Origin: a virus
Taxonomy: Duplodnaviria > Caudoviricetes
Reading direction: 5' to 3' (one strand)
Length of the DNA: 28,088 nucleotides
Virus record (IMG/VR): IMGVR_UViG_3300044976_000024
Location: 1-28,088 of that record
Part shown: piece by piece, positions 1 to 27,698 of the stretch
How positions within the stretch are numbered: the first letter of the stretch is position 1
How the letters are laid out: the number at the start of each line of letters is the position of its first letter
The notes under the pieces: generated by a model
Databases searched by the model: none
Told to the model about the DNA's origin: nothing
The model's input: the letters and a program-made list of their open reading frames with translations, nothing else
Program-made: the position numbers and the translations under genes

Positions 1-10
1 TTCTTTTCTC

Positions 11-93
11 CACCCCGGCGGGGGTGCGCCCGTGGCTACGGGCCTCCCTCGGCGGAGGGATTCCGGTGGCTACCGGAAGAGATAGGTTTATCT
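11..93. repeat. Array of five tandem perfect hairpins with GGYN tetraloops
   Basis: CACCCC-GGCG-GGGGTG (11-26), GCCCGT-GGCT-ACGGGC (28-43), TCCCTC-GGCG-GAGGGA (45-60), TTCCGGT-GGCT-ACCGGAA (61-78), AGATA-GGTT-TATCT (80-93). Confidence 0.9.
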
Positions 94-180
94 ATTTTTG
101 GTAAAGGGAAAGGAGATTAGATATCTATTTAGATATTTGATTTCTAAGCATTATCAGATGATTAACAATCCCTGGATAAA
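81..180. promoter_or_regulatory. AT-rich non-coding tract (promoter and/or DNA-unwinding element)
   Basis: 28 G+C in 100 nt by hand count in a strongly GC-rich genome; TAGATATCTA palindrome at 118-127 and ATATCTA/TAGATAT inverted repeat at 121-136; lies upstream of the first + gene. Confidence 0.55.
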
Positions 181-205
181 GACGTGACACTCCGAAGGAG
201 GAGAC

Positions 206-379
206 ATGGAGTACCTGCTGTATGTGCTGGCGTTCGTCGCCGGCTCGATCACCACCATCGTCATCGACGTGACGGTGAAGGAGCTCAAGCTCCGTAAGGA
301 GCTCAAGCAGAGCATCGAGAAGGCCCGCATCATCAACGAGTACGAAGCCAGCCGTAGCTGGCCCAACAGCTATGCGTAA
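206..379 (+). CDS. Small membrane protein, 57 aa (not in ORF track)
   Basis: AAGGAGGAG SD then ATG at 206; MEYLLYVLAFVAGSITTIVIDVTVKELK...SYA*; hydrophobic N-terminal helix; overlaps the next start. Confidence 0.8.
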   Translation: MEYLLYVLAFVAGSITTIVIDVTVKELKLRKELKQSIEKARIINEYEASRSWPNSYA

Positions 380-620
380 GGCATGGCTGTCGGCCGTCAT
401 CACCAGCGCCCTGATCTGGGCGTTGGTGGTGGCGGCTCTCTATTCGTCGCTGCAGCCGGACGACCTGCTGCACCACGTACTCACCTGGAGCCCGGCACAG
501 CTCGATGAGATGTGCGAGGTCTGGAGCCAGGACCGACAAGCGGTTCTTGAATCGCTGCACGTACTGAACGGTGCCTCGTACGAGGAAGCCGCTGTTGTCG
601 CCACGTTCGTGTGCGACTGA
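372..620 (+). CDS. Hypothetical membrane protein, 82 aa
   Basis: N-terminal hydrophobic stretch (WLSAVITSALIWALVVAALY); 8-nt overlap with the upstream gene; GC-rich third codon positions. Confidence 0.7.
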   Translation: MRKAWLSAVITSALIWALVVAALYSSLQPDDLLHHVLTWSPAQLDEMCEVWSQDRQAVLESLHVLNGASYEEAAVVATFVCD

Positions 621-650
621 ACAAGACGTACAACCCTGAGGAGGGATGGA

Positions 651-1079
651 ATGACACCGATCCACAAGCATGACTGCGAAGCCTGCATCTATGTGGGCTC
701 GTTCACGAAGGTGCGCTACAGCCGCGAGCACGATGACGAACGGCAGGTGCAGCACGACTGCTACGTGTGCCCGAGCAAGCCGGTCAACCTGATCGTCAGG
801 TTCGGGGACATGGGTGAGTACTCATCGAACATGGCCTTCCTGCCGCAGTCCGATTCCATGCGTCGGGCGTATGACCTGGCGATGGGGAGCGAAGCGGTGG
901 ACGGGCACCTCAAAGGTGCTCTCCGCTCTGTGCGCATGGGCGTGTACTCCGACAAGCTCACCGATCTGGTGATGTTCATCAAGCCCGGAGATGATCAGCT
1001 GGTCTACGAGTTCATCACGGACCTGCGTTTCGGAGCACAGGACTCTCGCACTGCCCCGCTCACTCTGACGGGGGACTGA
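651..1079 (+). CDS. Hypothetical protein with His/Cys motifs (HDCEAC, HDCYVC)
   Basis: GAGGAGG SD upstream; phage-like codon use; fills the gap in the operon. Confidence 0.8.
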   Translation: MTPIHKHDCEACIYVGSFTKVRYSREHDDERQVQHDCYVCPSKPVNLIVRFGDMGEYSSNMAFLPQSDSMRRAYDLAMGSEAVDGHLKGALRSVRMGVYSDKLTDLVMFIKPGDDQLVYEFITDLRFGAQDSRTAPLTLTGD

Positions 1080-1084
1080 ACCAT

Positions 1085-1134
1085 CGTCCTGGGCATGACG
1101 TGAAACTGCCCGTCCATTGCAACAACGAGGAGGA
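1085..1134 (+). promoter_or_regulatory. Predicted H-type pseudoknot plus GCAACAACGAGGAGGA start-associated motif (copy 1)
   Basis: S1 CGTC 1085-1088/GACG 1097-1100; S2 GGGCA 1091-1095/TGCCC 1107-1111; motif 1119-1134; ATG at 1138. Confidence 0.6.
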
Positions 1135-1137
1135 AGC

Positions 1138-1413
1138 ATGAGCACCAAGCGAAGGATCCGCACCCACGAGGAGCGGCTCGAAGATGCGCGCAAGGAACTG
1201 GTGCGCCTGGAACAGGAGACGATCACCAAGGCCATCGAACTGCGCAAGCAGTCCGAGGGCTGGACGGTGCGCGCCACCGAGCTGGTGACCAAGGCGCAGG
1301 GCGCGAAGGAGAAGGCGGACGAACTGCTGCAGTCCATCGGCCATGACCCCGTGCTGTTCTGGAAGGAGTACGAAGAGGCCGAGGCTGAAGCTCCTGCTGA
1401 AGGGCAGGAGTGA
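1138..1413 (+). CDS. Hypothetical coiled-coil protein, 91 aa
   Basis: Strong SD; E/K/R-rich helical sequence; GTGA overlap with the next gene. Confidence 0.85.
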   Translation: MSTKRRIRTHEERLEDARKELVRLEQETITKAIELRKQSEGWTVRATELVTKAQGAKEKADELLQSIGHDPVLFWKEYEEAEAEAPAEGQE

Positions 1414-2186
1414 AGCCGGCGGCTCAGGCTGTCGATGAGATCCGCACGCTGCTGCGGGGCAGGCCGGGATTCCTGGTCGGCTCCGCAGTGGCGGGCGAGG
1501 TCTACGACAAGCCGTACAACGACGTGGACGTGTTCGTCCCGTCGGTGGTGAGCCTCGCCTCCACGGTGCAGTTCCTGCTGGACGACGGCGCGAGCCTGGA
1601 TCTGCAGGCCGAGCGCACCTGGAACAGGTGGGACCTGATCGGCACCGGTGATTGGAACACCAACTCGATCAAGCTCGAGACGCTGCACGGCACCGAGGTG
1701 AACGTGGTGTACAAGGTGGTGAACAAGGCACCGCTCACCACCCTGCACACGGTGCTCGGCTCGTTCGACTTCGGCTACGTGGCGATGGGCTACGACCTGC
1801 GGCTGGGCACCTGGCACGACGGACGCGAGTTCTGGTTCGGCCGGGGCTGCGACATGGACCGCCTCGGCATGCTGCCGGAGCGGGAGATGCAGTGGCTCAA
1901 CGGTTCGTTGGGCACCTTCACCGGGGTGCGACAGGCGGAGCGGTACGCCAAGTTCGCCAACCGTGGCTACGACATGTCGCGTTCGGCACCGGTGCTGGTG
2001 CAGGGCTACCGCATCACGGCAGCCCACTACCAGCTCAGCGACGACCCGGAGAAGCTGGAGTACGCCGGGATCTACCTGTCGATCGCCGATCTCATCGAGA
2101 CCGGCGACGTCGACGGGCTGCTGTACGCGTACCAGCATCTGCGCAAGCACGACCCGGTCGGTTCGCTGAAGGCGGCGCTGCCATGA
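1410..2186 (+). CDS. Nucleotidyltransferase (Pol beta / CCA-poly(A) polymerase head-like)
   Basis: hhGSAV...NDVDVF (GS + DxD catalytic signature) and a downstream SFDF motif; GTG start coupled to the upstream stop. Confidence 0.7.
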   Translation: MKPAAQAVDEIRTLLRGRPGFLVGSAVAGEVYDKPYNDVDVFVPSVVSLASTVQFLLDDGASLDLQAERTWNRWDLIGTGDWNTNSIKLETLHGTEVNVVYKVVNKAPLTTLHTVLGSFDFGYVAMGYDLRLGTWHDGREFWFGRGCDMDRLGMLPEREMQWLNGSLGTFTGVRQAERYAKFANRGYDMSRSAPVLVQGYRITAAHYQLSDDPEKLEYAGIYLSIADLIETGDVDGLLYAYQHLRKHDPVGSLKAALP

Positions 2187-2570: not shown

Positions 2571-3500
2571 ATGTTAGAGAAGTTGATCAAGCTCTATGCG
2601 GCGTACATGACGTTCGGCACCACCGGGCTGATGCCCCATCTGGTGGGCCCGCCAGGTAGTGGCAAGTCGAGCGTCATCGAGGAGCTGGCCGAACTGGTGG
2701 GTGCGGAACTGCACGTCATCAACGTCAGCCGGCTCAGCCCGCTGGAGGTGGAGGGGGTGCAGATGCCGGTCGGGGAGGGGACGGCGATGGTGCTGACCAT
2801 GCTGCCCGCCACCTTCTGGACCCGGCTGAAGGACGGGGACATCATCCTGTTCGATGAGTTCCTGCGGGGATTCCCCGAGGTGTACAACGCACTGCTGGAC
2901 ATCTTCACGTCCAGGAAAGTGGGAGCGTTCCCGCTGCCCCGGGTCTTCATGATCGGGGCGAGCAACTCCATCGCCGCGTACGACGAGGCGTTGGAGGACC
3001 GGCTGCTGCACATCCCGGTGGCTGATCCCCGCAAGCGGCTGACGGAGCGCAAGCGGTTGGGCAGGATGATCGTCGAGCTGACGGGCATCCATCCCGCCAC
3101 CGTCGACAGCAATGAGATGAGCGAACTGCTGGACAAAGCGGTGCTGCCGACGTTCGACGTGCTCGACGCGCTTCTGGACAAGAAGTCCAGGAAGGTGGAG
3201 ACGCCCAAGCTGGGCGGCAGATCGGTGCGCAACCTGATCTCGCAGGTGCAGCTGCGCTACCTGGTCACGCCTGAGCTGAAGGAGCTGATCGAGGACAGCA
3301 ACCTGCGTGCCGAAACCGAGAGCAAGCTGCAGTACCTCGTGCTGCTCGGCAACGAGAAGAACATCGGACGGTTCGGCAAGAACCTCCACCAACTGGTGGG
3401 GAACCCGAAATTGACGAAGGTGCAGCGCAAGAATCTGGAGCTGAACCTCCAGCTGATCGAGCTGGCGGAAGCCAGGAAGGAGAACGACGATGACGAGTAG
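2571..3500 (+). CDS. AAA+ ATPase (MoxR/AAA_5-like)
   Basis: Walker A GPPGSGKS, Walker B ILFDEF, sensor-1 IGASN, ALEDR arginine finger; AAGGAGG SD. Confidence 0.9.
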   Translation: MLEKLIKLYAAYMTFGTTGLMPHLVGPPGSGKSSVIEELAELVGAELHVINVSRLSPLEVEGVQMPVGEGTAMVLTMLPATFWTRLKDGDIILFDEFLRGFPEVYNALLDIFTSRKVGAFPLPRVFMIGASNSIAAYDEALEDRLLHIPVADPRKRLTERKRLGRMIVELTGIHPATVDSNEMSELLDKAVLPTFDVLDALLDKKSRKVETPKLGGRSVRNLISQVQLRYLVTPELKELIEDSNLRAETESKLQYLVLLGNEKNIGRFGKNLHQLVGNPKLTKVQRKNLELNLQLIELAEARKENDDDE

Positions 3501-4437
3501 CCTCAAGCTGGTGGAGGTGAAGGCCGGGACCAGGTTCCCGGTCGCGGCCCTCCGCCGGGTTCTGAAGGACCCGAAGGCGGTGGCGCGGTTCGTGGCGCTG
3601 TACCGGCTGGACGAGTACCAGACCGGAGCGCTGCTGCGGCTGCTGTTCCCGGACAGCCCGGTGGTGCAGGCGCTGGTAGCGTCAGCCCACCTGCACTCCG
3701 GCTCGCTCCAGGGTTTCATCGTGGAGCTGGGGTACGAGAACAAGCTGTTCGACGGCACGGTGCTCACCCCCGAGGAGGAGGTCGAGCCCGAGCCTGATAC
3801 CGATCTGCTGGCGCAGATGTTCGAGCAGCTGCAGGTCAAGGTGGCCGACAACATCGCCGAGGTGGCCGATCAGCTGGCCGACACCCTGGTCGGCATGCCG
3901 GGCAAGGAAGGCCGGATGCGGATGAAGTCGTTGCTGAAGCTGGACCGCCGGATCAAGCGCAAGCTGGGCGTCCACCAGGCGCAGATCCAGCACGCGCACA
4001 AGCCGGACAACCTGGTGGTGTTCGACACCAGCGGCAGCATCGGCGAGAAGACGACGCTCGCCATCGCTGCTCCGGTGGTGGCGATGGCGGTCAAGGCCAA
4101 CGCCCACCTGGTGATCGTCAGCGACGGGGCACGGTGGTGGAAGCCGGGCGAGATCTCGGTCGAAGCGGTGCTCGGTGAAGCCGAGTACGCAGGGACGCAC
4201 TACGAAACCCTCAGCCCGCTCTTCGATCGGGACTGGGGCGTGGTAGTCAGCGTCGCGGACTACGACTCGTCGTACTCCTCGAAGGAGGCGATCGCCGATT
4301 GCACCGGCAGGATCCAGCTGCTGCTGGACATCTCGCTGGTGGAGCGGCCGACGTTCCTGGCCGAATGCCTGGAGCAGCTGGCGGACGAGACCCGTCCGTT
4401 AATGGTGGCCAAGGCTTCGCTGACCCACGCGTACTGA
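3490..4437 (+). CDS. VWA-domain protein (AAA partner)
   Basis: MIDAS motif VVFDTSGS (DxSxS), downstream GT and VAD residues; overlaps the AAA gene. Confidence 0.75.
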   Translation: MTSSLKLVEVKAGTRFPVAALRRVLKDPKAVARFVALYRLDEYQTGALLRLLFPDSPVVQALVASAHLHSGSLQGFIVELGYENKLFDGTVLTPEEEVEPEPDTDLLAQMFEQLQVKVADNIAEVADQLADTLVGMPGKEGRMRMKSLLKLDRRIKRKLGVHQAQIQHAHKPDNLVVFDTSGSIGEKTTLAIAAPVVAMAVKANAHLVIVSDGARWWKPGEISVEAVLGEAEYAGTHYETLSPLFDRDWGVVVSVADYDSSYSSKEAIADCTGRIQLLLDISLVERPTFLAECLEQLADETRPLMVAKASLTHAY

Positions 4438-4751
4438 TGGCGAAAGAAGGAGAGCCCGTCTACTACAACAAGGACGGGAGCGAGCTGACCAGCAAGCAAT
4501 GGAGCGTGCTATTCGACAACCTCAGCTTCAAGCGGATCAAGAAGGACGTGCTGCCGAACGGCCGTGTCGTCTCCACGGTATGGCTGGGGATCGACTACGG
4601 CCATGACCAGCAGCCGCCGCTGATCTTCGAGACGATGGTGTTCCCGTCGGAACGCTCGAACCTCGATGTCGACGTGGAACGCTACAGCACGGAGGAAGAG
4701 GCGCGGGCCGGGCACGCCCGGATGGTGGAGCACTGGTCCACCGAGCAGTAG
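4437..4751 (+). CDS. Conserved phage hypothetical protein, 104 aa
   Basis: TGATG-coupled start at 4437; VSTVWLG...PLIFETMVF...RYSTxxxAxxGH pattern that I recall from phage hypothetical proteins. Confidence 0.8.
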   Translation: MAKEGEPVYYNKDGSELTSKQWSVLFDNLSFKRIKKDVLPNGRVVSTVWLGIDYGHDQQPPLIFETMVFPSERSNLDVDVERYSTEEEARAGHARMVEHWSTEQ

Positions 4752-4761
4752 GACGTTCCGA

Positions 4762-4809
4762 GCAGGGGTGCGTCTGCCTATACGCACACATCCGCAACAA
4801 CGAGGAGGA
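4762..4809 (+). promoter_or_regulatory. Predicted H-type pseudoknot plus GCAACAACGAGGAGGA start-associated motif (copy 2)
   Basis: S1 GCAG 4762-4765/CTGC 4774-4777; S2 GTGCGT 4768-4773/ACGCAC 4782-4787; motif 4794-4809; ATG at 4813. Confidence 0.6.
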
Positions 4810-4812
4810 GAT

Positions 4813-5511
4813 ATGACGGACCAGAACACTCCCAAGGAGATGAAGGCGATCAAGGGCCGGCTCAGCTTCAACAAGCTGACCGCCCTGGAGGCGTACGAGG
4901 AGGCGATCACCGGGCCGTTCGCGGCCAACGTCAAGACGATCGGGGATGCGGCGCCCTACGCGACGCTGCTGCTGACGCAGACCCAGTACGACCGGATCAT
5001 GGCGAAGATCGTGGACGAGTTCCTGCCGTTCTGCGCTGCTCAGTACAAGATCAGCGACAAGGAGAAGAACGCGCTGTCACCCGCCGACATCAAGGGCCTG
5101 ACCGCCCAGCTGGAGGCGGGCACCGGCCCGTACAACACGCCGTTCAAGCAGCCCAGCGACAAGACGCTGGAGCTGATGCCGGACTGCGTGGCGAGCATCA
5201 AGCTGATCGGGCAGAAGGGCAAGGACTTCGACGTCCAGGCCATCGTGAAGAAGGACGACGAGCTGGCGGTGCCTGATCCCGACCGGATCATCCCGCCCGC
5301 GGTGGTGCTGCCGATCGGCGAGACCAAGCACCAGCTCTACAACGGGTGCTGGGTGATCGCGCCGCTGCGGTTCTACAGCTACAAGAACGGGAAGAACCCG
5401 GGCTTCAGCGCCGGGGGCGGCAGCCTGGTGTTCAGCCGGGACGATGCGCCGTTCAGCGGTGGCGGAGCCATCGACAGCGACAGCATCTTCGCTGCGGACG
5501 ACGAGGACTGA
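4813..5511 (+). CDS. ssDNA-binding protein (DUF2815/gp2.5-like), 232 aa
   Basis: GRLSF N-terminus, LYNGCW...FYSY...N.G, acidic C-terminal tail (IFAADDED); typical position beside Cas4 exonuclease and PolA. Confidence 0.7.
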   Translation: MTDQNTPKEMKAIKGRLSFNKLTALEAYEEAITGPFAANVKTIGDAAPYATLLLTQTQYDRIMAKIVDEFLPFCAAQYKISDKEKNALSPADIKGLTAQLEAGTGPYNTPFKQPSDKTLELMPDCVASIKLIGQKGKDFDVQAIVKKDDELAVPDPDRIIPPAVVLPIGETKHQLYNGCWVIAPLRFYSYKNGKNPGFSAGGGSLVFSRDDAPFSGGGAIDSDSIFAADDED

Positions 5512-5517
5512 TGAACA

Positions 5518-5552
5518 ACGGGTGCGGCCGGTATCGGACCGGTCGCACCCGT
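5518..5552 (+). terminator. 15-bp intergenic hairpin (terminator or mRNA stabiliser)
   Basis: ACGGGTGCGGCCGGT / ACCGGTCGCACCCGT, one G-U pair, 5-nt loop; no U-tract. Confidence 0.6.
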
Positions 5553-5577
5553 CGTCGGCACACACCCAGGAGGAACT

Positions 5578-6309
5578 ATGCCGCAAAAATTTTCTGCCAG
5601 CAACGCCACGAAGTTCATGCACTGCCACGCCAGTGCGAATCTGGACCTGGCCATCCCGTACTGGGAGGAGCCGGAGCAGGACCCGGCGGCGGACAACGCC
5701 GCCAACCGGGGCACCAAGATGCACGAAGTGTTCGCGGAGCTGATGCGGCTGCCGCTGCGGGACACCGAGAAGCTCACCGCAGCTGCGGACTACGTGAACT
5801 CGGTGCGTGACCAGCGGCGGTTCAAGAAGCTGGTCGAGGTGACAGAGGTGGCTGACTGGCTACCATCGTCACCCTCTACGACGGCGGACCTGGTGCTGTA
5901 CCTGGCCGACGAGCTGCACGTCTTCGACCTGAAGACGGGCAGGATTCCCATCGAAGTGATCGACAACGATCAGATGCTGTTCTACGCGGCGACCTATCTG
6001 AAGTACGCGCCGCGCGCCAAGGGCGTGACGCTGCACATCGTGCAGCCGTGGGCGCAGAACATCGGCGTCTGGTCGGTGACCACCCACGAGCTGTACCTGT
6101 GGATGGCGCGTGCGATCGAGCACGACCTGATGATCACCGACGGGGACACCACGTTCATGCCGGGGGACCATTGCACGTTCTGCCCCGCCAATCCGCACGG
6201 CAGAGGTGCCAAGGGTTCGCCGCTGTGCCCGGCGATGATGCAGATGCTGTACCCGCAGGCCGCCCTCGATGCGGCGGCCGTCCTGTTGGAGGAGGAGAGA
6301 GATGCATGA
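5578..6309 (+). CDS. Cas4-like PD-(D/E)xK exonuclease (DUF2800-like)
   Basis: GTKMHE, TADLV, FDLKTG, QMLFYA, and C-terminal HCTFCPA...C with an N-terminal Cys (Fe-S staple). Confidence 0.85.
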   Translation: MPQKFSASNATKFMHCHASANLDLAIPYWEEPEQDPAADNAANRGTKMHEVFAELMRLPLRDTEKLTAAADYVNSVRDQRRFKKLVEVTEVADWLPSSPSTTADLVLYLADELHVFDLKTGRIPIEVIDNDQMLFYAATYLKYAPRAKGVTLHIVQPWAQNIGVWSVTTHELYLWMARAIEHDLMITDGDTTFMPGDHCTFCPANPHGRGAKGSPLCPAMMQMLYPQAALDAAAVLLEEERDA

Positions 6310-8416
6310 GCCGGTGCTGAAAGTGATGGGCCTGGACTTCGAGACGTACAGCGATGTGGATCTGCGCAAGCACGGGCTGGCCCGGTACGTGGCGAGCCCG
6401 AACTTCAAGGTGCTGCTGGCTGCGGTGTCCTGGATAGAGGACGACTTCATATGCAGCGCGGTGCTGGACTTCGTGGCCGACGAGGAGGAGGCGAGGGAGA
6501 GGCTGCTCGAGATGCTGACGGGTGCGCACATCGTGGCGCACAACGCCATGTTCGAGCAGGTGGTGCTGACCGCACTGGGCGCGGACTTCAGCATGAACAC
6601 GTTCGTGGACTCGGCGATGATGGCACGGGCGGCAGGTCTGGGCGGCAGCCTGGAAGCGGCTGCGCCGCAGCTGCTGGGGGTGGACAAGATGGCCTCCGGC
6701 AAGGACGGCATCATGCTGTTCTGCATCCCGGGCACCTACCAGATGGACAGCGGCGACGGGGCGTTCGACCCGCAGGTGGTGACCGACCACCCGGAGCAGT
6801 GGGCGGAGTTCGTCAAGTACTGCGCGCTGGATGCGGCGCTGAGCCTGAAGCTGATGTCCAGGCTGCTGGACCAGTGCACCCCGGACGAGCTGCACTACTC
6901 GGCCTGCACCATGCTGATGAACAGCGAGGGCTGGCACGTGGACCTGCCGCTGGTGGCGGAGATGAACCGCCGCTACCAGCAGAACATGGAGGAGGAGATC
7001 CTCCGCTTCCGTCTCGAAGTGGACGGGGCCGAGGACCTCAACCTGTTCAGCAGCCAGCAGCTGATCAAGTGGTGCGGGGAGCGGGGCATCCGTGCCAAGT
7101 CGTTCGACGAGCAGCACGTGGCCTCGATGCTGGAGAAGCTGGCGGTCCGGCTCGACCGGCTGGACCCGGAGTCGGACAAGCGCGCGGGCTACGAGGACGT
7201 GGTACGGCTGCTGCGGGTCAAGCAGGCGTTGGGCGGTAGCAGCCTGAAGAAGCTGCAGACGATCATGGACACCACCATGCCGAACGGCATGCTGTACGAC
7301 CAGTACTTGCACGCCGGTGCCAGCACCACGCTGCGGACCACGGGCAGATCGGTGCAGATGCAGAACCTCAAGCGCCTCGGCGGCAAGGGCGACGACGTGT
7401 CGGAGCTGTTCGATCCGACCGTCAGGTGGGACAACGCCAAGCTGGCCCGCAACCTGCGCCAGGTGTTCACCGCCAAGGCCGACGACGGCGTGCTGGTGGT
7501 CGGAGACTTCAGTGCGGTGGAGAGCAGGGGCCTGGCCTGGCTGTCGGGCGAGGACTGGAAGCTGGAGGCGTACCGCAACGGCATCGGGGTGTACGAGATG
7601 CAGGCCGCCAAGTTCTACGGCATCGACATCGCTGATGTGGTGCCGGAGCAGCGGCAGTTCGCCAAAGTGGGCGAGCTGAGCTGCGGCTACGAGGCAGGGC
7701 CCGAAGCGGTGCAGGACTTCGCCGAGAAGATGGGCGTGCCGCTGACGATGGGCGAGGCGAAGAAGCTGGTCTGGGACTTCCGCACCACCAACGAGAAGAC
7801 GGTGGCGTTCTGGCGCTCTCTTCATGAAGCGCTGCAGGAGGTGTCGGAGATCGGGCTGTCGAAGGTGCAGCTCCCGGAAGGGAGCATCGTGTTCGAGACC
7901 GGACCTGCGGTGCCGTCGCTGCAGGAGCTGACGACCAGGAAGCTGAGCACCCTGCTGGTGCGGGTGGACGTGCCGGGCCGGAAGGACCCGTTCCGCATGA
8001 CGCGGATCTTCCACGGCTTCTCCAACGAGGGCCGCGGGTTCACGTTCTGGAAGTCGAGCGCACGCAAGACCGGTGACCTGTGGACGCCGACGTACGTCGA
8101 TCCGAAGACCGGGTACAAGAAGAACTACTCGCTCTACGGCGGGAAGCTCGCGGGCATCCTGACGCAATCGCTGTGCCGTGAGATCTTCATGCACAGCCTG
8201 AGCATGGTGACGCTGTGGTCGAACGGCACCGACAACGTACGGACGGTAGGCCAGTTCCACGACGAGATCGTGCTGGACTGGCGCGCGCCGGTATCGGTGA
8301 TCGACCCTGATCTGGACGCTACGGTCGGTGCTCTCGACAAGGTGATGAGCCACTCGGAGTTGCCCGGTTTCCCGCTGGCGTGCGAGATCAAGACGGATTA
8401 CCGCTACACGAAATGA
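6302..8416 (+). CDS. polA: DNA polymerase family A with 3'-5' exonuclease, 704 aa
   Basis: Exo I DFETY, Exo II HNAMFE, Exo III YCALD; motif A DFSAVESR, motif B RQFAKVGELSCGY, motif C HDEIV; SD GGAGGAG before ATG 6302. Confidence 0.95.
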   Translation: MHEPVLKVMGLDFETYSDVDLRKHGLARYVASPNFKVLLAAVSWIEDDFICSAVLDFVADEEEARERLLEMLTGAHIVAHNAMFEQVVLTALGADFSMNTFVDSAMMARAAGLGGSLEAAAPQLLGVDKMASGKDGIMLFCIPGTYQMDSGDGAFDPQVVTDHPEQWAEFVKYCALDAALSLKLMSRLLDQCTPDELHYSACTMLMNSEGWHVDLPLVAEMNRRYQQNMEEEILRFRLEVDGAEDLNLFSSQQLIKWCGERGIRAKSFDEQHVASMLEKLAVRLDRLDPESDKRAGYEDVVRLLRVKQALGGSSLKKLQTIMDTTMPNGMLYDQYLHAGASTTLRTTGRSVQMQNLKRLGGKGDDVSELFDPTVRWDNAKLARNLRQVFTAKADDGVLVVGDFSAVESRGLAWLSGEDWKLEAYRNGIGVYEMQAAKFYGIDIADVVPEQRQFAKVGELSCGYEAGPEAVQDFAEKMGVPLTMGEAKKLVWDFRTTNEKTVAFWRSLHEALQEVSEIGLSKVQLPEGSIVFETGPAVPSLQELTTRKLSTLLVRVDVPGRKDPFRMTRIFHGFSNEGRGFTFWKSSARKTGDLWTPTYVDPKTGYKKNYSLYGGKLAGILTQSLCREIFMHSLSMVTLWSNGTDNVRTVGQFHDEIVLDWRAPVSVIDPDLDATVGALDKVMSHSELPGFPLACEIKTDYRYTK

Positions 8417-8419
8417 GCA

Positions 8420-8456
8420 GAAGCCGGGCACCCCGAGGAGGTGGGTGCCCGGCTTC
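8420..8456 (+). terminator. Perfect 14-bp intergenic hairpin
   Basis: GAAGCCGGGCACCC / GGGTGCCCGGCTTC with 9-nt loop CGAGGAGGT. Confidence 0.65.
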
Positions 8457-8473
8457 CTGGAGAAGGAGAGACG

Positions 8474-8944
8474 TTGACATTGTTGCATGTAGTAGGAGTG
8501 GACCCCGGTCTGATCCATACCGGGGTGGTATCGCTGAAGCTCGACACCGATCTGTTGGAGCTGACATCCACCAGCACGCTGATCGATGGGCCGGACGCGT
8601 ACCAGGTCCGGGCCTGGATCGGGATGCTCGGTGATCCGGTGGTGTTCATCGAGAAGTACCGGCCCCGGTCCCATTACGGGACCGACGAGCGGATGATCAA
8701 GGCGGAGCGGGACTTCAAGAAGGCGATGCCGAAGGCGGTGCTGCTCAACAACACCGGCGTGCTGCAAGTGGTGACGCAGGAACTGCTGGAACTGCTAGAG
8801 CTGTGGAAGTTCTCGCTGTCCTCGCACCACCAGGACCTGCGATCCGCGGCGAGGGTGGCGGTGCTGGGGATGCTGCGGGACCCGGAGATGAACGAGCAGC
8901 TGACCCGGTACGTGGAAGGATTGGTGTTCGATGCGAACGCCTGA
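8474..8944 (+). CDS. RuvC-like Holliday junction resolvase
   Basis: VVGVDPGLIHTG, VFIEKY, HQDLRSA; TTG start placed after AAGGAG SD. Confidence 0.8.
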   Translation: MTLLHVVGVDPGLIHTGVVSLKLDTDLLELTSTSTLIDGPDAYQVRAWIGMLGDPVVFIEKYRPRSHYGTDERMIKAERDFKKAMPKAVLLNNTGVLQVVTQELLELLELWKFSLSSHHQDLRSAARVAVLGMLRDPEMNEQLTRYVEGLVFDANA

Positions 8945-10082
8945 GCTGTTCGACTACCAAGAGACGTTCATCGAAGCGATAGAGCAGATCCCGGACCCTG
9001 TCCGGGCGTGCCTCTACTACCGCACCGGGGCGGGCAAGAGCCTGACCGCGGTGCTGGGACTGCTGACGCTGGGCTGCACCGAGGCGTTGGTGATCTGCCC
9101 GCCGTCCACGTTCAACCAGTGGGAGACGGTAGGGCTGCAGCACGGGCTGGTGGTCAGGACCATGAGCCACGCCAAGTTCCGGATGCGCAGCACCAAGCTG
9201 GACCGGGACGTGCCGGTGATCGCGGACGAGTTTCACATGTTCGGCGGGCAGCAAGGCATGGGCTGGCGCAAGCTGGACGCGCTGGCCCGGGGACTTCGGG
9301 CACCGATGCTGCTGCTGTCGGCGACGCCGAACTACAACGACGCCGAGCGGGTGTACTGCGTGCAGCACATCCTCTCGCCGCACGTCACCAAGGGCGGCTA
9401 CCTGCAGTTCCTCTACGAGAACTGCATCACGCAGCAGAACCCGTTCAGCCAGACCCCGGAGGTCACCGGGTTCAAGGACTACCCGGACGCCTGTGCGTTC
9501 CTGGCCGGCCTGTCCAAGGTGTTCCATGTGGCGGACGAGGCGGTGATCGACCTGGTCGATCTGCCGTACCGGGTGGACCTGCCGCCGGAGATGGTGCGCT
9601 ACGGCCTGGACGTCAGGCGCGGACGCATCTTCAGCAGCCAGATGGAGCGGCGGCACGTCGAGCGGGTGCACGGTCTGATCGGCGACGACGGCGATCTCAG
9701 GCCGGAGCCGCTGCGGCTGCTGCTGCCGCTGCTGGACGTGGGCGTGCTGGTGTTCAGCAGCCACGCCACGGTGGCCAGAGCGCTGTCCACCACGCTGCAG
9801 CGGCTGGAAGTGGAGCACCAGCTGATGACGGGGTCATCGACCCATCGGGAGAAGAAGGAGAAACTCGCCGCGTTCCTGGCACCAGGAGGTAGGAAGGTAC
9901 TGGTAGGCACTTCGACGCTGGCGACGGGGACCGATGGTCTGGACCGGGTCTGCGACCGGCTGGTGATCCTGGACGACACCGACGACGATGCTCTTCGTCG
10001 CCAACTTTTGGGCAGGATTCTGCCTAGGGGGGCGACGGTCGTGAGCGACAAGGAGTTCTTCAGGCTGACACCTGATCTCTGA
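8931..10082 (+). CDS. SF2 DNA helicase (DExH)
   Basis: RTGAGKS, IADEFH, LSATP, ATGTDGL, QLLGRILPRG. Confidence 0.9.
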   Translation: MRTPELFDYQETFIEAIEQIPDPVRACLYYRTGAGKSLTAVLGLLTLGCTEALVICPPSTFNQWETVGLQHGLVVRTMSHAKFRMRSTKLDRDVPVIADEFHMFGGQQGMGWRKLDALARGLRAPMLLLSATPNYNDAERVYCVQHILSPHVTKGGYLQFLYENCITQQNPFSQTPEVTGFKDYPDACAFLAGLSKVFHVADEAVIDLVDLPYRVDLPPEMVRYGLDVRRGRIFSSQMERRHVERVHGLIGDDGDLRPEPLRLLLPLLDVGVLVFSSHATVARALSTTLQRLEVEHQLMTGSSTHREKKEKLAAFLAPGGRKVLVGTSTLATGTDGLDRVCDRLVILDDTDDDALRRQLLGRILPRGATVVSDKEFFRLTPDL

Positions 10083-10130
10083 CTCACCCGGGGAGGGACC
10101 GATCGGCCTGATCGGGATTGAGGAGGAGAG

Positions 10131-10253
10131 ATGTCAGACATGGAGATCAGCACCGACAGGATCGTCGAGGTGCTCGAGGATCCGAAGAGCTCGGTCGAAG
10201 ATTTCAACCGGGCTCTCATCAGGATCAAGACGATCAAGTCGTTGCAGCAGTAA
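10131..10253 (+). CDS. Small hypothetical protein, 40 aa (not in ORF track)
   Basis: GAGGAGG SD; MSDMEISTDRIVEVLEDPKSSVEDFNRALIRIKTIKSLQQ*; fills the intergenic gap. Confidence 0.7.
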   Translation: MSDMEISTDRIVEVLEDPKSSVEDFNRALIRIKTIKSLQQ

Positions 10254-10258
10254 CGCGC

Positions 10259-10285
10259 AGGGGCGGTCCATTCCGGGCCGCCCCT
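10259..10285 (+). terminator. 11-bp intergenic hairpin
   Basis: AGGGGCGGTCC / GGGCCGCCCCT (one G-U), 5-nt loop, directly after a stop codon. Confidence 0.6.
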
Positions 10286-10309
10286 TCGTGCTGGAGAGAA
10301 GGAGAGAGC

Positions 10310-11686
10310 ATGCCGACGATTAAGAACAAGCGCCAGATGGCGGACGAGGCGGAGGCGCTGGCGCTCAGCTTCTTCTGCGAGTTCTACAAGGAGGTGCTGT
10401 ACCTTCCGGCGGACTATCTGACTGGGGAGTGGAGCACCCCGCCGCCGCCGGAGCGCAGGATGTGGCGGCCGATGGACAAGACCCTGCTGATGCAGGTGGC
10501 ACGGACGCAGTTCGGGACGGTGTTCTCCTCCGACACGGACGTGGAGCAGTTCCGTTTCATGGTGCAGCAGGCATCGAATGTGACCCAGGTCACAAGTGCT
10601 TCACTGCTGCTCACCACGGACGACGGGCTGCGGGTGCTGCGGGAGGACGGGGAGTTGTACGTTCCCGACGGATCATTCGTACCGAACATCATTCCGGTGC
10701 GGCTGAACACCGATTCGGCAGCCAAGGAGGAGGTGCTGTCGGTCATCACCGAGTGGCTCGGCTCGGAGCAGGAGGCGCTGTCACTGCTGCGGCACCTGGC
10801 CACCGGGCTGGCTCCCGGCTGGTCGGCGGTGAAGTACGTGCTGCTGCTCGGCGACGGACGCAACGGCAAGTCGGTGATGATGCAGATGATGATGAACCTG
10901 TTCGGCCGGTACAACGTCTCGGGCGTGTCCCGGCAGAACATCAGCGAGGGCTCCCCGGTGGTGGCGGAGCTGAACGGCAAGCTGCTCAACATCATCTACG
11001 ACGGAGTGGCGGTGTACCTGAAGGACTCCGGCCATGAGAAGTCGCTGGTCGCCGGGGAGGAGGTCGGTGTCAGGATGCTGTACCGCTCGTCGCTGACCCC
11101 GGTGCAGACCAACGCGCTGTTCATCGAGGGGCTGAACCGGGAGCCGAAGTCCAGCGACAAGTCCTCTGCGTTGCAGGAGCGGCTGGTGCGGTTCTGGTTC
11201 AAGAACACGTACGACGACGACCTGGTGTTCCGGGAGCGGATGCTGTCCGAGCAGCTGCTGGGCGCATTGCTGTCGCTGCTGCTGGACAACTACGTGCGCA
11301 AGGAGGACAAGGCGGTGATGCTCTCACCGACCGAGGAGTCCAAGCTGCTGAAGCTGGAGCACATGACCTCGAACTCGCTGGCGATGCAGTACATCGAGCA
11401 CCTGGTGGAGACCGGGCACCCGGAGGATCTGATCGGCAAGTCGCTGACCGACCTGACGGACGAGTTCAGGAGGTGGCGGCTGAAGGACGGTGACCTCACC
11501 GTCTGGACCAAGGACGGGGTGCGCACACAGTTCAAGACGGTGCTGGAGTTCAAGCGCAAGTCGGCCCGTGCCGGAACGAAAGTGATCAAGGTGGTGGTGG
11601 TCGACGCGTTCAAGAAGCATGCCCTCGAACTGGTCGAGGGACTGTCCGAGGAGGAGGAGACCAAGGATGTTCTGGTGGGAGAGTGA
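10310..11686 (+). CDS. D5/P4-type SF3 helicase (primase-associated), 458 aa
   Basis: Walker A GDGRNGKS, LNGKLLNIIYD, motif C LFIEGLN; AAGGAG SD before ATG 10310. Confidence 0.85.
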   Translation: MPTIKNKRQMADEAEALALSFFCEFYKEVLYLPADYLTGEWSTPPPPERRMWRPMDKTLLMQVARTQFGTVFSSDTDVEQFRFMVQQASNVTQVTSASLLLTTDDGLRVLREDGELYVPDGSFVPNIIPVRLNTDSAAKEEVLSVITEWLGSEQEALSLLRHLATGLAPGWSAVKYVLLLGDGRNGKSVMMQMMMNLFGRYNVSGVSRQNISEGSPVVAELNGKLLNIIYDGVAVYLKDSGHEKSLVAGEEVGVRMLYRSSLTPVQTNALFIEGLNREPKSSDKSSALQERLVRFWFKNTYDDDLVFRERMLSEQLLGALLSLLLDNYVRKEDKAVMLSPTEESKLLKLEHMTSNSLAMQYIEHLVETGHPEDLIGKSLTDLTDEFRRWRLKDGDLTVWTKDGVRTQFKTVLEFKRKSARAGTKVIKVVVVDAFKKHALELVEGLSEEEETKDVLVGE

Positions 11687-12506
11687 CAAGTACGACGGCG
11701 ACCACGTGCTGCCGGAGGAGTTCAGGCATCTGGCCGGGCCGAACGGGGTGGCTTGCGTCAGGGTGTACCCCAACGGCAAGACCGACCCCGGTTGGGGCAT
11801 GACCCCGGACAAGACCGGCCGGGCGTTCGCCGACAACTACGCGGCCAACAAGTTCAACGAGCAGATCGCGCTGATCGGGACGCTCTCGGGCCGATGGGAT
11901 TTCGCGTTCGTGATGCGCTCCCTGAAGGTGGTGTGCATCGACATCGACGGCAAGAACGGCGGGATGCAGCACGTCGGCAAGCTCGGCATGCTGCCGCCAA
12001 CGATGGCCGAGACCAGCAAGAGTGGAGACGGTTACCACCTGTTCTACGCCACGCCGTGGGACGTGTGGGACGAGGAGGCCGGCTTCGCCATGTTCAAGGA
12101 TCGGATCAGCATCGTGCCCGGCGTGGACATCAGGGCGGTGGGGTGCGTGTACCACCATGACATCCAACGGTGGAACGACCGTTCGATCGTGCCGCTACCG
12201 GACTTCCAGAAGGACACCTGGCTGGCACGGGCGCTGAAGGCGGAGAAGGAGATCGACGAGATCATCGAGTTGCTCGACATGGGGGACGACGACCAGGTGC
12301 TCGTGATCCGGACCAACCTGATGACGGACCTGGCCAAGCCGATCCCGGCTGGTAGGAGGAATACGACGCTGTACGCCATCGGGGTCAAGATGCTGCTGGC
12401 GGGTGTTCCCAGCTGGGAGACCCCGCTGTACAACCGCGCCATCCAGGTGGGACTGGACAGCGAGGAGGCCAAGAAACTGGTCGGCAACGTGAGGAAGTAC
12501 CGATGA
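11667..12506 (+). CDS. Bifunctional DNA primase/polymerase (Prim-Pol) with PriCT-1-like C-terminus
   Basis: VCIDIDGKNGG, TSKSGDGYHLFY, GVDIRA; C-terminal GRRNTTLY. Confidence 0.88.
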   Translation: MFWWESDKYDGDHVLPEEFRHLAGPNGVACVRVYPNGKTDPGWGMTPDKTGRAFADNYAANKFNEQIALIGTLSGRWDFAFVMRSLKVVCIDIDGKNGGMQHVGKLGMLPPTMAETSKSGDGYHLFYATPWDVWDEEAGFAMFKDRISIVPGVDIRAVGCVYHHDIQRWNDRSIVPLPDFQKDTWLARALKAEKEIDEIIELLDMGDDDQVLVIRTNLMTDLAKPIPAGRRNTTLYAIGVKMLLAGVPSWETPLYNRAIQVGLDSEEAKKLVGNVRKYR

Positions 12507-12661
12507 CCGTCGAAGAGGAAGCACCGATGAACGATAAGTTGCTGGAAGAATCAGAACGAAAGCAACCTGACCAACTGCCGATCCACCGCACCGAAGCCGG
12601 ATGGCCCCGGTGCAGCACCTGCGACGGCGGCGGTTGCTACGACTGCACGGACCCAGCATGA
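12503..12661 (+). CDS. Small CxxC-CxxC zinc-finger protein, 52 aa (not in ORF track)
   Basis: ATGA overlaps at both ends; ...GWPRCSTCDGGGCYDCTDPA*. Confidence 0.75.
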   Translation: MTVEEEAPMNDKLLEESERKQPDQLPIHRTEAGWPRCSTCDGGGCYDCTDPA

Positions 12662-12939
12662 CGGAGCGTGAACGCATCCTGGACGAAGCCAAGCGGATCA
12701 TCTCGTCCGACCGGAACGTCGAGTACGGCGAGCCGGAGCGGAACTTCGAGCGGATCTCCGACCTGTGGTCGGCGTACCTGGGGGAGGACCGGGTGGTCTA
12801 CGCGCACGATGTGGCGGTGATGCTGGCGCTGGTGAAGGTGGCGAGGATCGCCAACAGCCCCAACAAGGAGGACCACTGGGTGGACCTTGCAGGCTATGCA
12901 GCCTGTGGAGGCGAGCTGAGGCCGCCTGAGATGGGGTAG
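12658..12939 (+). CDS. DUF6378-like alpha-helical protein, 93 aa
   Basis: DRxxxYGxPxxNF..I..LWSAYL...VA.M..L.K.AR......DHWVDLAGYAA. Confidence 0.85.
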   Translation: MTERERILDEAKRIISSDRNVEYGEPERNFERISDLWSAYLGEDRVVYAHDVAVMLALVKVARIANSPNKEDHWVDLAGYAACGGELRPPEMG

Positions 12940-12950
12940 ACGAGGAAGAG

Positions 12951-12989
12951 GAGGGAGCGAGGCTGAAAAGCTTCGCTCTCTTTTTTTTT
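12951..12989 (+). terminator. Intrinsic terminator
   Basis: GAGGGAGCGAGGCT-GAAA-AGCTTCGCTCTC followed by T9. Confidence 0.92.
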
Positions 12990-12992
12990 AGG

Positions 12993-12998
12993 TAGGCT
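12993..12998 (+). promoter_or_regulatory. -10 element (TAGGCT) of a probable leaderless promoter
   Basis: TANNNT 6 nt before ATG 13005; no SD; directly after a terminator. Confidence 0.65.
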
Positions 12999-13004
12999 AC
13001 GGAC

Positions 13005-13571
13005 ATGAACGACAGCGAGTCGGTCCTGTCCGAAGCGGAAAGAGTATTGAGAGAGAGGTTTCTGAATAAGGGGGAGAGCAATAGGGCTCTGCCTAGTGAT
13101 GCAGAGCCCGGACGACCTTCGGTACGGGTCGAATCGTTGGTGATACCCGACGAGTTGAGAAGGAAGATGCCGCTCACCAAGTCGAAATACTTGGTGCGCG
13201 AGAACCCGCACATGGTGCAGTGGGAGCGCGAGGTGCGCAAGTTCCTGCGCCAGCTCTCGCCGGACCACGAGCACCGGGTCTCGGCGGTGATGCTGTACGA
13301 GTGGGCCACCGGCATCAGGATCGTCGACCTGGTGCAGCTGGAGCAGGGGCGGGCGCAGACCAGGCCCGGCTCCCAGGACACCTGGCGGAGCGACCTGCGC
13401 AAGCTGAACAAGCTGCTGCGCTACTACTTCGGCAAGCCGTACTCCACCTACATCGGCGGGCGCAAGGTGCCCAAGGCGTACAAGGTGAGGATCGGCTACC
13501 TCATCACCCGGCACCGGCCGATGACGCTGACGCTGTGGACCGAGTACACCGAAGGGGCGCTGTACCCATGA
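13005..13571 (+). CDS. Hypothetical basic protein, 188 aa (possibly DNA-binding)
   Basis: Open frame with strong GC3 after the N-terminus; ATGA overlap with the next gene. Confidence 0.85.
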   Translation: MNDSESVLSEAERVLRERFLNKGESNRALPSDAEPGRPSVRVESLVIPDELRRKMPLTKSKYLVRENPHMVQWEREVRKFLRQLSPDHEHRVSAVMLYEWATGIRIVDLVQLEQGRAQTRPGSQDTWRSDLRKLNKLLRYYFGKPYSTYIGGRKVPKAYKVRIGYLITRHRPMTLTLWTEYTEGALYP

Positions 13572-15911: not shown

Positions 15912-16766
15912 CTAGCGGGTCCACTTCCTGATGGGCTGGGCACCGTTGGTGCTGCCGGGGCGGTAGTTCTGGGGTTGAGTGCCGTTGGTGCTGCCGGGGC
16001 GGTACGGGGCTGTGGTCGGCCCAGGACGGTTCCCACCAGCGATGGTGCGGGGGTCAGGGCCCGGCGCGGGCTGGATGCCGTTAGTGCTGCCTGGGCGGTA
16101 CGGGGCTGTGGTCGGGCCTGGACGGTTCCCTCCGGCGATGGTGCGGGGGTCAGGGCCTGGTGCAGGCTGGGCGCCGTTGGTCATGCCAGGGCGGTACGGG
16201 ATAGGGCCCTGCCCCGGCTGGGCGCCGTTGGTCATGCCCGGGCGGTAGTTCTGCCCGGTCAGTGCAGGGCGATTCCCACCAGCGATGCTGCCCGGGTTCG
16301 CACCTGATACCGGCTGGGCGCCGGTGGTCTGGCCGGGACGGTACGGGGCGGTGGTCGGTCCAGGACGGTTCCCACCAGCGATGCTGTTCGGGTTAGCACC
16401 CGCTGTCGGCTGCTTGCCGGTGGTCTGGCCAGGACGGTAGTTCTGCGGCTGCGTGCCGGTGGTCTGGCCAGGGCGGTACTCGTTCGAAGGCGGGGTGTTC
16501 TGGCCATTCTGCGCAGCCTGGGTGGGGGTCGGTGCCCCGCCGAGGTCGAGCACCAGCCCGGAGTGGATGAGGTCGGCTGGTCCGGGAGTGCCCTTGCTGC
16601 CCTTGGGCACCTTCAGCTTGCCCATGTTGGTGGCGATGATGCGGAGCATCTCGTCCGCGACCTCCTCCACCGTGGCGGGCGGGGTGTTGGTGCCCCGCTG
16701 CAGGCCGAGCGATCGGTCGGCGATGCTCCAGATGCTGTCCCCGGGTGCAACCGTGTACAGAGCCAT
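15912..16766 (-). CDS. LysM-domain protein with C-terminal Pro/Gly/Thr repeat region
   Basis: YTVAPGDSIWSIA...N...DLIHSGLVL (LysM with insertions); 8 copies of YRPG[QMS]T[TN]G and 4 copies of IAGGNRP. Confidence 0.8.
   Translation of the reverse strand: MALYTVAPGDSIWSIADRSLGLQRGTNTPPATVEEVADEMLRIIATNMGKLKVPKGSKGTPGPADLIHSGLVLDLGGAPTPTQAAQNGQNTPPSNEYRPGQTTGTQPQNYRPGQTTGKQPTAGANPNSIAGGNRPGPTTAPYRPGQTTGAQPVSGANPGSIAGGNRPALTGQNYRPGMTNGAQPGQGPIPYRPGMTNGAQPAPGPDPRTIAGGNRPGPTTAPYRPGSTNGIQPAPGPDPRTIAGGNRPGPTTAPYRPGSTNGTQPQNYRPGSTNGAQPIRKWTR
15935..16482 (-). repeat. Intragenic coding tandem repeats
   Basis: Includes a 96-nt duplication (units starting at 15981 and 16077) that differs mostly at synonymous sites. 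Confidence 0.9.
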
Positions 16767-19584: not shown

Positions 19585-19685
19585 GTAGACAAGTAGACAC
19601 GTAGTCACCCTGTTTCCTTACTCTCCCTTTTCTTCTCTAAAAAGTAGAGTAAGGGGCTGAGCTGTCTACGTGTCTACATGTCTAC
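19585..19685. repeat. Inverted iteron element: 3 x GTAGAC (8-bp period) / AT-rich core / 3 x GTCTAC; candidate replication origin
   Basis: GTAGAC at 19585 and 19593, GTAGTC at 19601; GTCTAC at 19664, 19672 and 19680; inner inverted repeat CCTTACTCT/AGAGTAAGG. Confidence 0.85.
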
Positions 19686-26428: not shown

Positions 26429-27136
26429 TCAGAGGTCGTCGACGACTGTCAGCCCGATGCCGTCGAACAGGTGCGCGGCCTGGGACTTCCCGACGAAGGA
26501 GGTGCCAGGGGCGTCGTTTCCGAACCCGTGCTGCGTCTGGCACTTGCGCACCTCGTCATCGGTCATGGCGAAGTACCCGCCGGTGGTCGGCAGCGTCGCG
26601 CCGCCCTCGAGCGGATGGCCGTTGAGCACGGTCTGCAGGTACCAGACCGAGTCGCTGTCCTCGGTGCCGAACGTCAGCTTGCTCAGGTAGACGGTCTTGG
26701 AGGTCGGGGCCGGGTAGTCGCCACCGCCACCTCCGCCGCTGTCGTTGTGGCTGAGCATCGGGTCGGCCATGATGTTGCACGACCAGCCGTACTGGCTGTG
26801 CCGCTCGAAATGCAGGTGCGGGCCGGTGGCGTTGCCCTCGCTGCCGACCTCCGCCAGGTAGTCGCCGGCCCCGACGTGGCCGCCGTTGCCGGGCCGGGTG
26901 CGGGTATGGGCGTAGAAGTCCTCGGTGCCGTCGCCGGGCCGGACCACGAACTGGTGGCTGCCGAAGCTGGAGCCGTAGTCAACATGGCTGATCTGCCCGC
27001 CGCGGGCGGCCACCACCGTGGCCCCGGCGTCGGCGGCGTAGTCCTGGCCGGTATGCCAGCCGCAGGTGTTCCAGCTGCCGGTGTTCGCCTTGTGGTACGG
27101 GGTCGTCACCGAATGGCCGGGAACCGGATTTACCAT
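26429..27136 (-). CDS. Endolysin: M23 peptidase plus peptidoglycan-binding-like domain, 235 aa
   Basis: HTGQD (HxxxD), YAH, HLHFE (HxH), Gly linker, VWYLQTVLN...TDDEVRKCQ; start at ATG 27136 with TACTGT 7 nt upstream. Confidence 0.88.
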   Translation of the reverse strand: MVNPVPGHSVTTPYHKANTGSWNTCGWHTGQDYAADAGATVVAARGGQISHVDYGSSFGSHQFVVRPGDGTEDFYAHTRTRPGNGGHVGAGDYLAEVGSEGNATGPHLHFERHSQYGWSCNIMADPMLSHNDSGGGGGGDYPAPTSKTVYLSKLTFGTEDSDSVWYLQTVLNGHPLEGGATLPTTGGYFAMTDDEVRKCQTQHGFGNDAPGTSFVGKSQAAHLFDGIGLTVVDDL

Positions 27137-27174
27137 AACCCCCACAGTAACGATTCCGCTGGCAGTATGGGCCG

Positions 27175-27294
27175 ATGAACGAGTTCTGGTGGGTCGTGGT
27201 ACTGGCGCTGGCGGTGACAACTATCGCGGTCTCGGCGGGGTTCCTGTACGGCATGTACCTGATCGTGAACGACCTCATCCTGACGTGGGACTGA
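27175..27294 (+). CDS. Small single-TM protein, 39 aa (not in ORF track)
   Basis: MNEFWWVVVLALAVTTIAVSAGFLYGMYLIVNDLILTWD*; divergent from the endolysin gene. Confidence 0.6.
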   Translation: MNEFWWVVVLALAVTTIAVSAGFLYGMYLIVNDLILTWD

Positions 27295-27548
27295 CGGCGG
27301 TCGAGGTGGGGATCGTCGGAGGTCCGTTCCTGATCCTGCTGGGGCTGCTGCTGAAGTTCACGTCCTGGTGTCTCAATGTCCCTTTCTATGCGCCGCTGGA
27401 CGAGTGCCCCGCCGGCTGCTGGCTGCCGCCGGTCGGCCCGCGCACCATGAGCTCGGCGGAGTTCCGCTGCCGCGACTGCGGCCGGTACTGGCGCACCGAG
27501 ATGGATGCGATCCGGGACCGCACCGAGTACGTCTTCTGGGTGCCGGGA
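27285..27548 (+). CDS. Probable TM plus Cys (CPAGC...CRDC) protein; 3' end uncertain (frame stays open to 28001)
   Basis: GTG start overlapping the upstream small ORF; coding-like GC3 up to ~27548, then the frame enters a hairpin and antisense genes. Confidence 0.45.
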
Positions 27549-27580
27549 CGGCCCCGGACACGGGGGTGGATCCGGGGCCG
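27549..27580. terminator. Perfect 10-bp hairpin between convergent genes
   Basis: CGGCCCCGGA / TCCGGGGCCG with a 12-nt loop. Confidence 0.6.
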
Positions 27581-27597
27581 CAGTCCGGAGCCTACGG

Positions 27598-27678
27598 TCA
27601 GTACGCCGCGAGCACCAGGGCGACCTGGCACGCCAGGATCAGGGCCAGCAGCAGCACCGCTATCGCGCGATCGTCCAT
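27598..27678 (-). CDS. Leaderless 26-aa hydrophobic peptide (not in ORF track)
   Basis: MDDRAIAVLLLALILACQVALVLAAY*; TACGCT 6 nt upstream of ATG. Confidence 0.55.
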   Translation of the reverse strand: MDDRAIAVLLLALILACQVALVLAAY

Positions 27679-27698
27679 ACCGGCAGCGTAGCGGCGGA

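Follow-up and report, generated by a model that had tools for sequence, protein, structure and literature searches.

A conserved row of DNA-like hairpins ahead of the early operon of actinobacterial podophages, and a predicted virion RNA polymerase as its possible reader

The locus and its source

The DNA analysed here (the window, 28,088 nt in full) is a 28-kb virus record and represents a fragment of a cluster EM/EK-like actinobacterial podophage. Arthrobacter phage MissAmericana and, among Microbacterium podophages, the Burro group are its best relatives, with about 40% identity in Pol and 68% in the terminase. A chimeric contig was considered for the difference in GC content between the two halves of the window and was rejected, because each half matches EM phages with its genes in the same order. 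The contig starts 10 nt before a row of short hairpins, which stands ahead of the early/replication operon. The features used below, in window positions, are as follows.

11-26: hairpin 1, 6-bp stem, loop GGCG (CGCC on the minus strand)
28-43: hairpin 2, 6-bp stem, loop GGCT
45-60: hairpin 3, 6-bp stem, loop GGCG
61-78: hairpin 4, 7-bp stem, loop GGCT; last hairpin with a GC apex, anchoring the fixed downstream spacing
79-99, plus strand: spacer of fixed length, with a weak hairpin (80-93) and a T-run (95-99)
80-93: hairpin 5, 5-bp stem, loop GGTT; weak and A/T-rich, inside the spacer
100-101, plus strand: GG directly downstream of the T-run, 32 nt from the loop 4 start; predicted start of transcription
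100-120, plus strand: purine-rich tract (86% purine; mean about 82% in relatives); predicted start of the transcript
193-379, plus strand: ribosome-binding site and first ORF (57 aa, ATG at 206) of the early/replication operon
2571-13571, plus strand: remaining operon, encoding an AAA ATPase, an SSB-like protein, an exonuclease, DNA Pol A, an SF2 helicase, a primase-helicase and Prim-Pol
11619-12506, plus strand: Prim-Pol
19585-19685, inside the structural operon: origin-like cluster of inverted GTAGACA-type repeats round an A/T-rich core, without an adjoining hairpin array

The primase-helicase is of the SF3 type, and the minus-strand genes include those for the terminase, an M23 peptidase and WhiB. 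In the relatives, the start of the early operon faces away from a divergent neighbour, a gene of more than 4,400 codons, and we infer that this phage carries the giant gene as well, beyond the left end of the contig.

Four further features of the window were noted. The M23 peptidase and WhiB-like genes lie at 26429-27974, where MissAmericana and Burro have other lysis/tail genes. Five degenerate repeats with a 96-nt spacing occupy 15918-16439, in a minus-strand ORF adjoining the terminase. A short palindromic element lies between two early genes at 1081-1112, and the fetched loci did not contain its core. The 258-aa early protein encoded at 1410-2186 is conserved in EM-type phages and has invariant residues G24, D38, D40 and D120, a pattern which we take to be nucleotidyltransferase-like; no Pfam, PHROG or PDB match was found for it, and tblastn placed it in 11 records, none of them from EK phages.

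Structure and conservation of the array

The five perfect hairpins at 11-93 that a preliminary description had reported are real. Their stems of 6, 6, 6, 7 and 5 bp are separated by gaps of 1, 1, 0 and 1 nt, and their loops start at 17, 34, 51, 68 and 85, an exact 17-nt period that had been missed. A chain of five abutting hairpins arose in none of 3000 dinucleotide shuffles of positions 1-120, where the longest chain was three, and in none of 40 shuffles of the whole window; outside the array, the longest chain in the window is also three. The folding z-score of 1-120 is -4.3 as DNA and -3.6 as RNA. An exact search of viral contigs with hairpin 1 returned 119 loci, none with the array, and the sequence of the array is therefore not conserved.

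The 258-aa early protein served to gather relatives, giving 39 viral loci and 108 metagenome loci, of which the best 80 were used; eight cultured phages were added. EM, EK1 and EK2 phages share the array, as do environmental contigs, and its place before the early/replication operon is the same; the family consists of short-tailed phages of soil and water. For an unbiased count, 50 distinct loci were anchored on a separate conserved upstream motif and scanned over 1.46 kb for a triple of perfect tetraloop hairpins at intervals of 16-18 nt. Such a triple was found at 44 of the 50 loci, as against 21 of 388 control windows taken from other parts of 11 genomes; the other six loci comprise one truncated locus and five arrays that are imperfect by eye. 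In 50 arrays picked from the collected loci, with the hairpin chain restricted to spacings of 13-21 nt, the period was 17 nt in 96 of 119 intervals and 16 or 18 nt in 22.

Pairing was analysed in 44 non-redundant arrays (six near-duplicates dropped), anchored on the last strong hairpin. At 17 nt upstream of the anchor, a GC apex was found in 44/44 arrays (with a shift of up to 2 nt allowed) and 240 of 264 pairs were Watson-Crick. The corresponding values were 42/44 and 203/264 at 34 nt, and 25/44 and 130/264 at 51 nt. These counts indicate that the unit is a row of three to four hairpins with the loop N-G-C-(T/G). The 44 arrays have 41 distinct 5' arms, and swapping arms between them gave a mean of 88 and a maximum of 117 Watson-Crick pairs, against the 240 of 264 in the real ones. 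The alignment of related phages thus bears out the earlier view that structure and loop are selected rather than duplicated, as the stems covary with the GC tip of the loop fixed. Other details of that view did not carry over to the relatives. The shared loop is N-G-C-K rather than GGYN, the alternation of closing pairs is not a rule, and the fifth hairpin, whose loop is unconserved, is a weak A/T-rich element of the fixed spacer and not a member of the array. The first loop base at the last strong hairpin varies (T in 20, G in 16, C in 6 and A in 2 of 44), and 7 of 168 loops in relatives are GCT triloops.

The array is a single-copy element. In 9 of 11 complete genomes the GC-apex triple was found at the array and at no other place; G003 and G011 each have one deviant loop in the array. 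A profile scan with the tail only, partly trained on the same genomes, revealed no further site linked to hairpins. In every one of the 11 complete genomes, as in the cultured phages, the array lies internally. Telomeres of Streptomyces and Rhodococcus linear replicons also consist of rows of short palindromes with a shared loop; a telomere was rejected here, given the internal position in complete genomes and with no terminal-protein gene identified.

The region past the array is conserved in layout as well. In the relatives, the hairpins are followed by an A/G-rich stretch, often a weak hairpin, and then the T-run, a G and the purine tract. T occupies offsets +26 to +29 from the last loop in 32-38 of 44 arrays, and 45 of 50 arrays have the first G at +30 to +32. 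Tandem G/A repeats expand the purine tract that follows the array at L164:6200-6290. The motif TANNNT occurs in the spacer of 22 of 50 arrays and a conserved -10 box is absent. A consensus scan of window positions 1-1500 found neither a sigma-70-type promoter nor a terminator.

These features bear on two rival readings of the row. In one, the terminase or the ejected giant protein would bind the regular hairpin row as a multimer. Single copy, a strict 17-nt period that suits a multimer and DNA-like pairing (see below) agree with this, as do the circularly permuted genomes, which fit a pac site (PMC7302621), and the start of our contig only 10 nt before the array. However, technical causes also make assemblies break at hairpins, every complete genome examined has the array at an internal position, and a fixed T-run, G and purine tail pointing into the early operon would be left unexplained. 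We therefore regard a packaging or ejection signal as improbable, and the same holds for the joint proposal that such binding starts headful packaging or pulls in or anchors the genome. In the other, a regulator of phage or host origin would act on the host RNA polymerase at the early operon, with the hairpins as its operator array. The operon is directly preceded by palindromes whose centre is fixed, and Burro has a zinc-finger DNA-binding gene in its early operon; yet no -10 box is conserved, and the arms share no sequence within or between arrays, a misfit with reading of duplex sequence. An operator thus appears highly improbable.

Nucleic acid, strand and relation to replication

The preliminary description had left a structured RNA open as one option. 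In that case the array would form part of a leader or small RNA, with repeated NGCU loops for binding or sponging a protein and with the weak fifth hairpin and the U-run as its end. The RNA z-score of -3.6 with a closing stem is consistent with this, and RNA folding energies favour the sense strand (27 versus 17 of 44 arrays, by a mean of 1.2 kcal/mol). In addition, EK1 phages have TATAAT boxes upstream of the short repeats (iterons) that precede the array. The mispairs point the other way. On the sense strand, the array has 14 G.T and 17 A.C in 792 pairs, versus 50 G.T and 1 A.C in 445 pairs (11% G-U) of the terminators of the same loci, which end a small gene upstream of the array at 43 of 49 relative loci; stems were defined differently in the two counts, and the contrast therefore rests in the asymmetry. 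The 24 internal mismatches, a count that pyrimidine-rich linkers may bias, include 14 that are pyrimidine-pyrimidine on the plus strand (five of them tandem, equal to tandem G.A on the minus strand), six that contain A.C, four purine-purine (one from a mis-anchored hairpin) and one that contains G.T. These are types that are unstable on the sense strand, and G.A and G.T are among the better-tolerated mismatches in DNA. Rfam gave no match at gathering level for the window and five loci, with weak matches only at relaxed thresholds; an intrinsic terminator or known RNA family was accordingly rejected, as no terminator was called in 1-1500 either. The array lacks the sense-strand G-U signature of its neighbouring terminators, and the structured-RNA option is therefore disfavoured and in our view quite improbable.

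We read the array from these sequence patterns as a DNA-like element. With DNA parameters, the minus strand of 1-110 folds as exactly these five hairpins and the plus strand adopts an alternative fold across the first three; DNA folding energies in the relatives show no strand preference (19 versus 22). The mismatch types lend moderate support to hairpins on the minus strand, which the folding energies do not share.

The same strand and DNA-like pairing would be expected of a single-strand priming site, another function proposed earlier. Hairpin-reading primases are known from plasmid origins, and single-strand initiation sites of plasmids and phages are DNA hairpins near an iteron origin in a replicon that encodes a primase. 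Here, Prim-Pol or the primase-helicase would read the minus-strand hairpins after unwinding at the iterons. This phage encodes both Prim-Pol and an SF3-type primase-helicase, and most relatives have an inverted short-repeat (iteron) cluster within about 750 nt upstream of the array, which appears to resemble a primase-helicase origin. However, a second iteron cluster without an array lies 21-27 kb away in 8 of 11 complete genomes, which suggests two origins per genome, and the cluster at 19585-19685 of the window likewise has no array. Conversely, G001 and G002 keep the array with no iteron cluster before it, and in L163 a gene is inserted between the cluster and the array. As array and cluster separate in both directions, the array goes with the first early gene and not with the repeats. 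The constant association of array and origin expected of a primase initiation site was not observed, taking the clusters as the presumptive origins, and unlike such sites the array is periodic and keeps its place beside the early operon where iteron clusters have moved or been duplicated. Moreover, priming leaves the fixed position ahead of the first early gene unexplained. The nearby iteron cluster in most relatives means that a link to replication remains. The distribution of the enzyme does not help, because all 58 phage records with Prim-Pol homologues are of Microbacterium phages or MissAmericana, matching the phages with the array, and co-occurrence cannot separate primase from polymerase. 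Priming by Prim-Pol is thus weakened by the independence of array and iterons while sharing its distribution with the array, and we consider a priming site rather unlikely; the accompanying proposal that the rightward leading strand is primed near the T-run and G is equally so.

A predicted virion polymerase as candidate reader

The giant protein of the relatives offers another reader. It has been described as the largest protein known in actinobacteriophages and as virion-associated, with a virion band of about 250 kDa presumed to be Burro gp27; in the accessible text of that report it has no assigned role and is described as unlike the N4 polymerase, and the genomes are given as circularly permuted (PMC7302621). 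We found a single conserved DxDGD motif in the giant proteins of four cultured phages, as well as in the giant ORFs of environmental loci. Among the 130 full-length members of the family (245 clusters), which are about 4,400-4,900 aa long, 128 have the motif at residues 803-1009; both exceptions are shorter proteins, one of which shows the motif in the alignment. A profile of the region matched two polymerase subunits, 7ogp of phiKZ (E 0.0025) and beta' of AR9 (E about 0.1), over a stretch with both the arginine-proline and the aspartate motif; the same search gave a coiled-coil protein at 0.009, and the margin of the 7ogp match is thus thin. An AlphaFold model of the region had a pLDDT of 73 and a pTM of 0.43. 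Among the Foldseek matches listed for it, all were RNA polymerase largest subunits, with TM-scores of 0.10-0.16; the best E was 0.005, and no match reached 0.001.

About 2,100 aa after DxDGD lies a second block with invariant lysines in a well-predicted beta-strand region. These lysines may correspond to the lysine pair of beta subunits, which would make the block a candidate second barrel; a PDB profile search with this block gave no match. A KG-bearing block near residue 1720 was also considered as the second barrel and was dropped on viewing the alignment. Searches of the four giant proteins against Pfam and PHROGs, and of one of them as a single sequence against PDB, returned no match, no T7/N4-type motif, Pfam or PDB match was found in the four, and the ESM Atlas gave no usable match for the giant protein. 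On this weak fold evidence, the giant protein of the relatives appears to be a predicted virion two-barrel RNA polymerase. At G004:C1:6532-20469 (L257) and in the family P0021-P0170, the aspartate motif, which is beta'-like, precedes the candidate beta-like lysine block, and the spacing of about 2,100 aa between them is unusually wide for a single-chain two-barrel polymerase.

We propose that the array may be a tandem DNA-hairpin promoter or loading site of this predicted polymerase, a reading to which we give about an even chance. Several observations argue for it: the array is conserved in place, single-copy and at fixed spacing to the T-run and G ahead of the first early gene; no host-type promoter was found in 1-1500, and in relatives a terminator closes the small gene upstream; pairing is DNA-like; array and iteron clusters separate in both directions; and the giant protein of the relatives has a polymerase motif. 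The more specific form, in which a sigma-less two-barrel polymerase within an injected protein of some 4,500 residues reads a row of three to four DNA hairpin loops, is somewhat less probable than that. Under this model, the giant protein would be injected into the host, where the short inverted repeats would extrude or become exposed as single strands. The enzyme would then bind the GC-tipped loops on the minus (template) strand, several of which might be engaged by several domains or enzyme copies, and transcription of the early operon would begin with the G that follows the T-run, some 105 nt ahead of the ATG at 206. The promoter reading is weakened by the TATAAT boxes upstream of the iterons in EK1 phages and by a conserved A/T-rich element upstream, which could be the real promoter.

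Of the three functions offered in the preliminary description, a promoter for a virion RNA polymerase has gained most, with an enzyme of two-barrel type and a geometry that is not that of N4. The N4 virion RNA polymerase recognizes template-strand hairpins with variable stems (PMC4496689). Like N4 promoters P1-P3, the array offers short hairpins with a partly free stem ahead of early genes in a phage whose relatives have a giant candidate virion polymerase. In contrast, each N4 promoter has a single hairpin, which contains a sheared G:A pair and whose 3-nt loop is centred at -11, whereas here three to four tandem tetraloop hairpins follow a 17-nt period and the last loop lies about 30 nt before the predicted start. 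N4 also has three promoters at the left genome end, which enters first, whereas a single array is found per circularly permuted genome, and its enzyme is of T7 type, whereas the candidate here is two-barrel. Extrusion of N4-type hairpins depends on supercoiling and SSB. If the model holds, the array would work by analogy with the hairpin promoter of N4 without belonging to the N4 family.

Closer parallels for the enzyme are phi14:2 gp66 and P23-45 gp96, both of which transcribe the first genes of their phages. The crAss-like gp66 is a virion two-barrel enzyme that prefers single-stranded DNA, and its early transcripts share no common motif in the text available (10.1101/2020.03.07.982082). Thermus phage P23-45 gp96, of 5,002 aa, has its catalytic aspartate motif at 779-783, and its promoters are an A/T-rich sequence motif (10.1101/2022.12.01.518664); the word 'hairpin' does not occur in the main text of either report as available. 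The giant protein here is similar in size and in the place of its aspartate motif, but differs in having its candidate second barrel about 2,100 aa past that motif. The A/T-rich promoter of gp96 calls for caution, because the present phages also hold a conserved A/T-rich element upstream.

Our search of the literature, which covered main texts of mostly open papers, turned up neither the array nor a proposal that the giant protein is a polymerase; the same is true of the accessible text of PMC13460095 and of PMC7302621. The word 'hairpin' is absent from that of PMC7302621, whose supplements list repeat motifs of other clusters. If the promoter reading is true, the array would represent a class of multi-hairpin promoter not described for any two-barrel polymerase. 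A family-wide, single-copy signal that is encoded in structure and set at a fixed distance from a predicted start would also be a precise target for studying how sigma-less virion polymerases find their promoters. Should one of the rival explanations hold instead, the array would be a new kind of priming or packaging signal. The phages and their harmless host Microbacterium foliorum are in culture, so a direct test is feasible.

Two conserved elements lie further upstream in the relatives. One, of about 70 nt and strongly conserved in sequence, directly follows a terminator upstream of the array at L164:6015-6090 and 48 other loci, in a region outside the window. Rfam gave no match for this element, which has a covarying 7-bp hairpin with flanking pairings, occurs in 23 viral contigs, of which 22 belong to relatives known before, and is a candidate for a new non-coding RNA or DNA signal. 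The other, at L168:1000-1045 and in L164, L165 and L121-L128, consists of a conserved A-rich run, a C-run and a TA-repeat palindrome. Situated between the giant gene and a small gene, upstream of a small conserved ORF, it could be a promoter, including one for the virion polymerase, or a packaging site.
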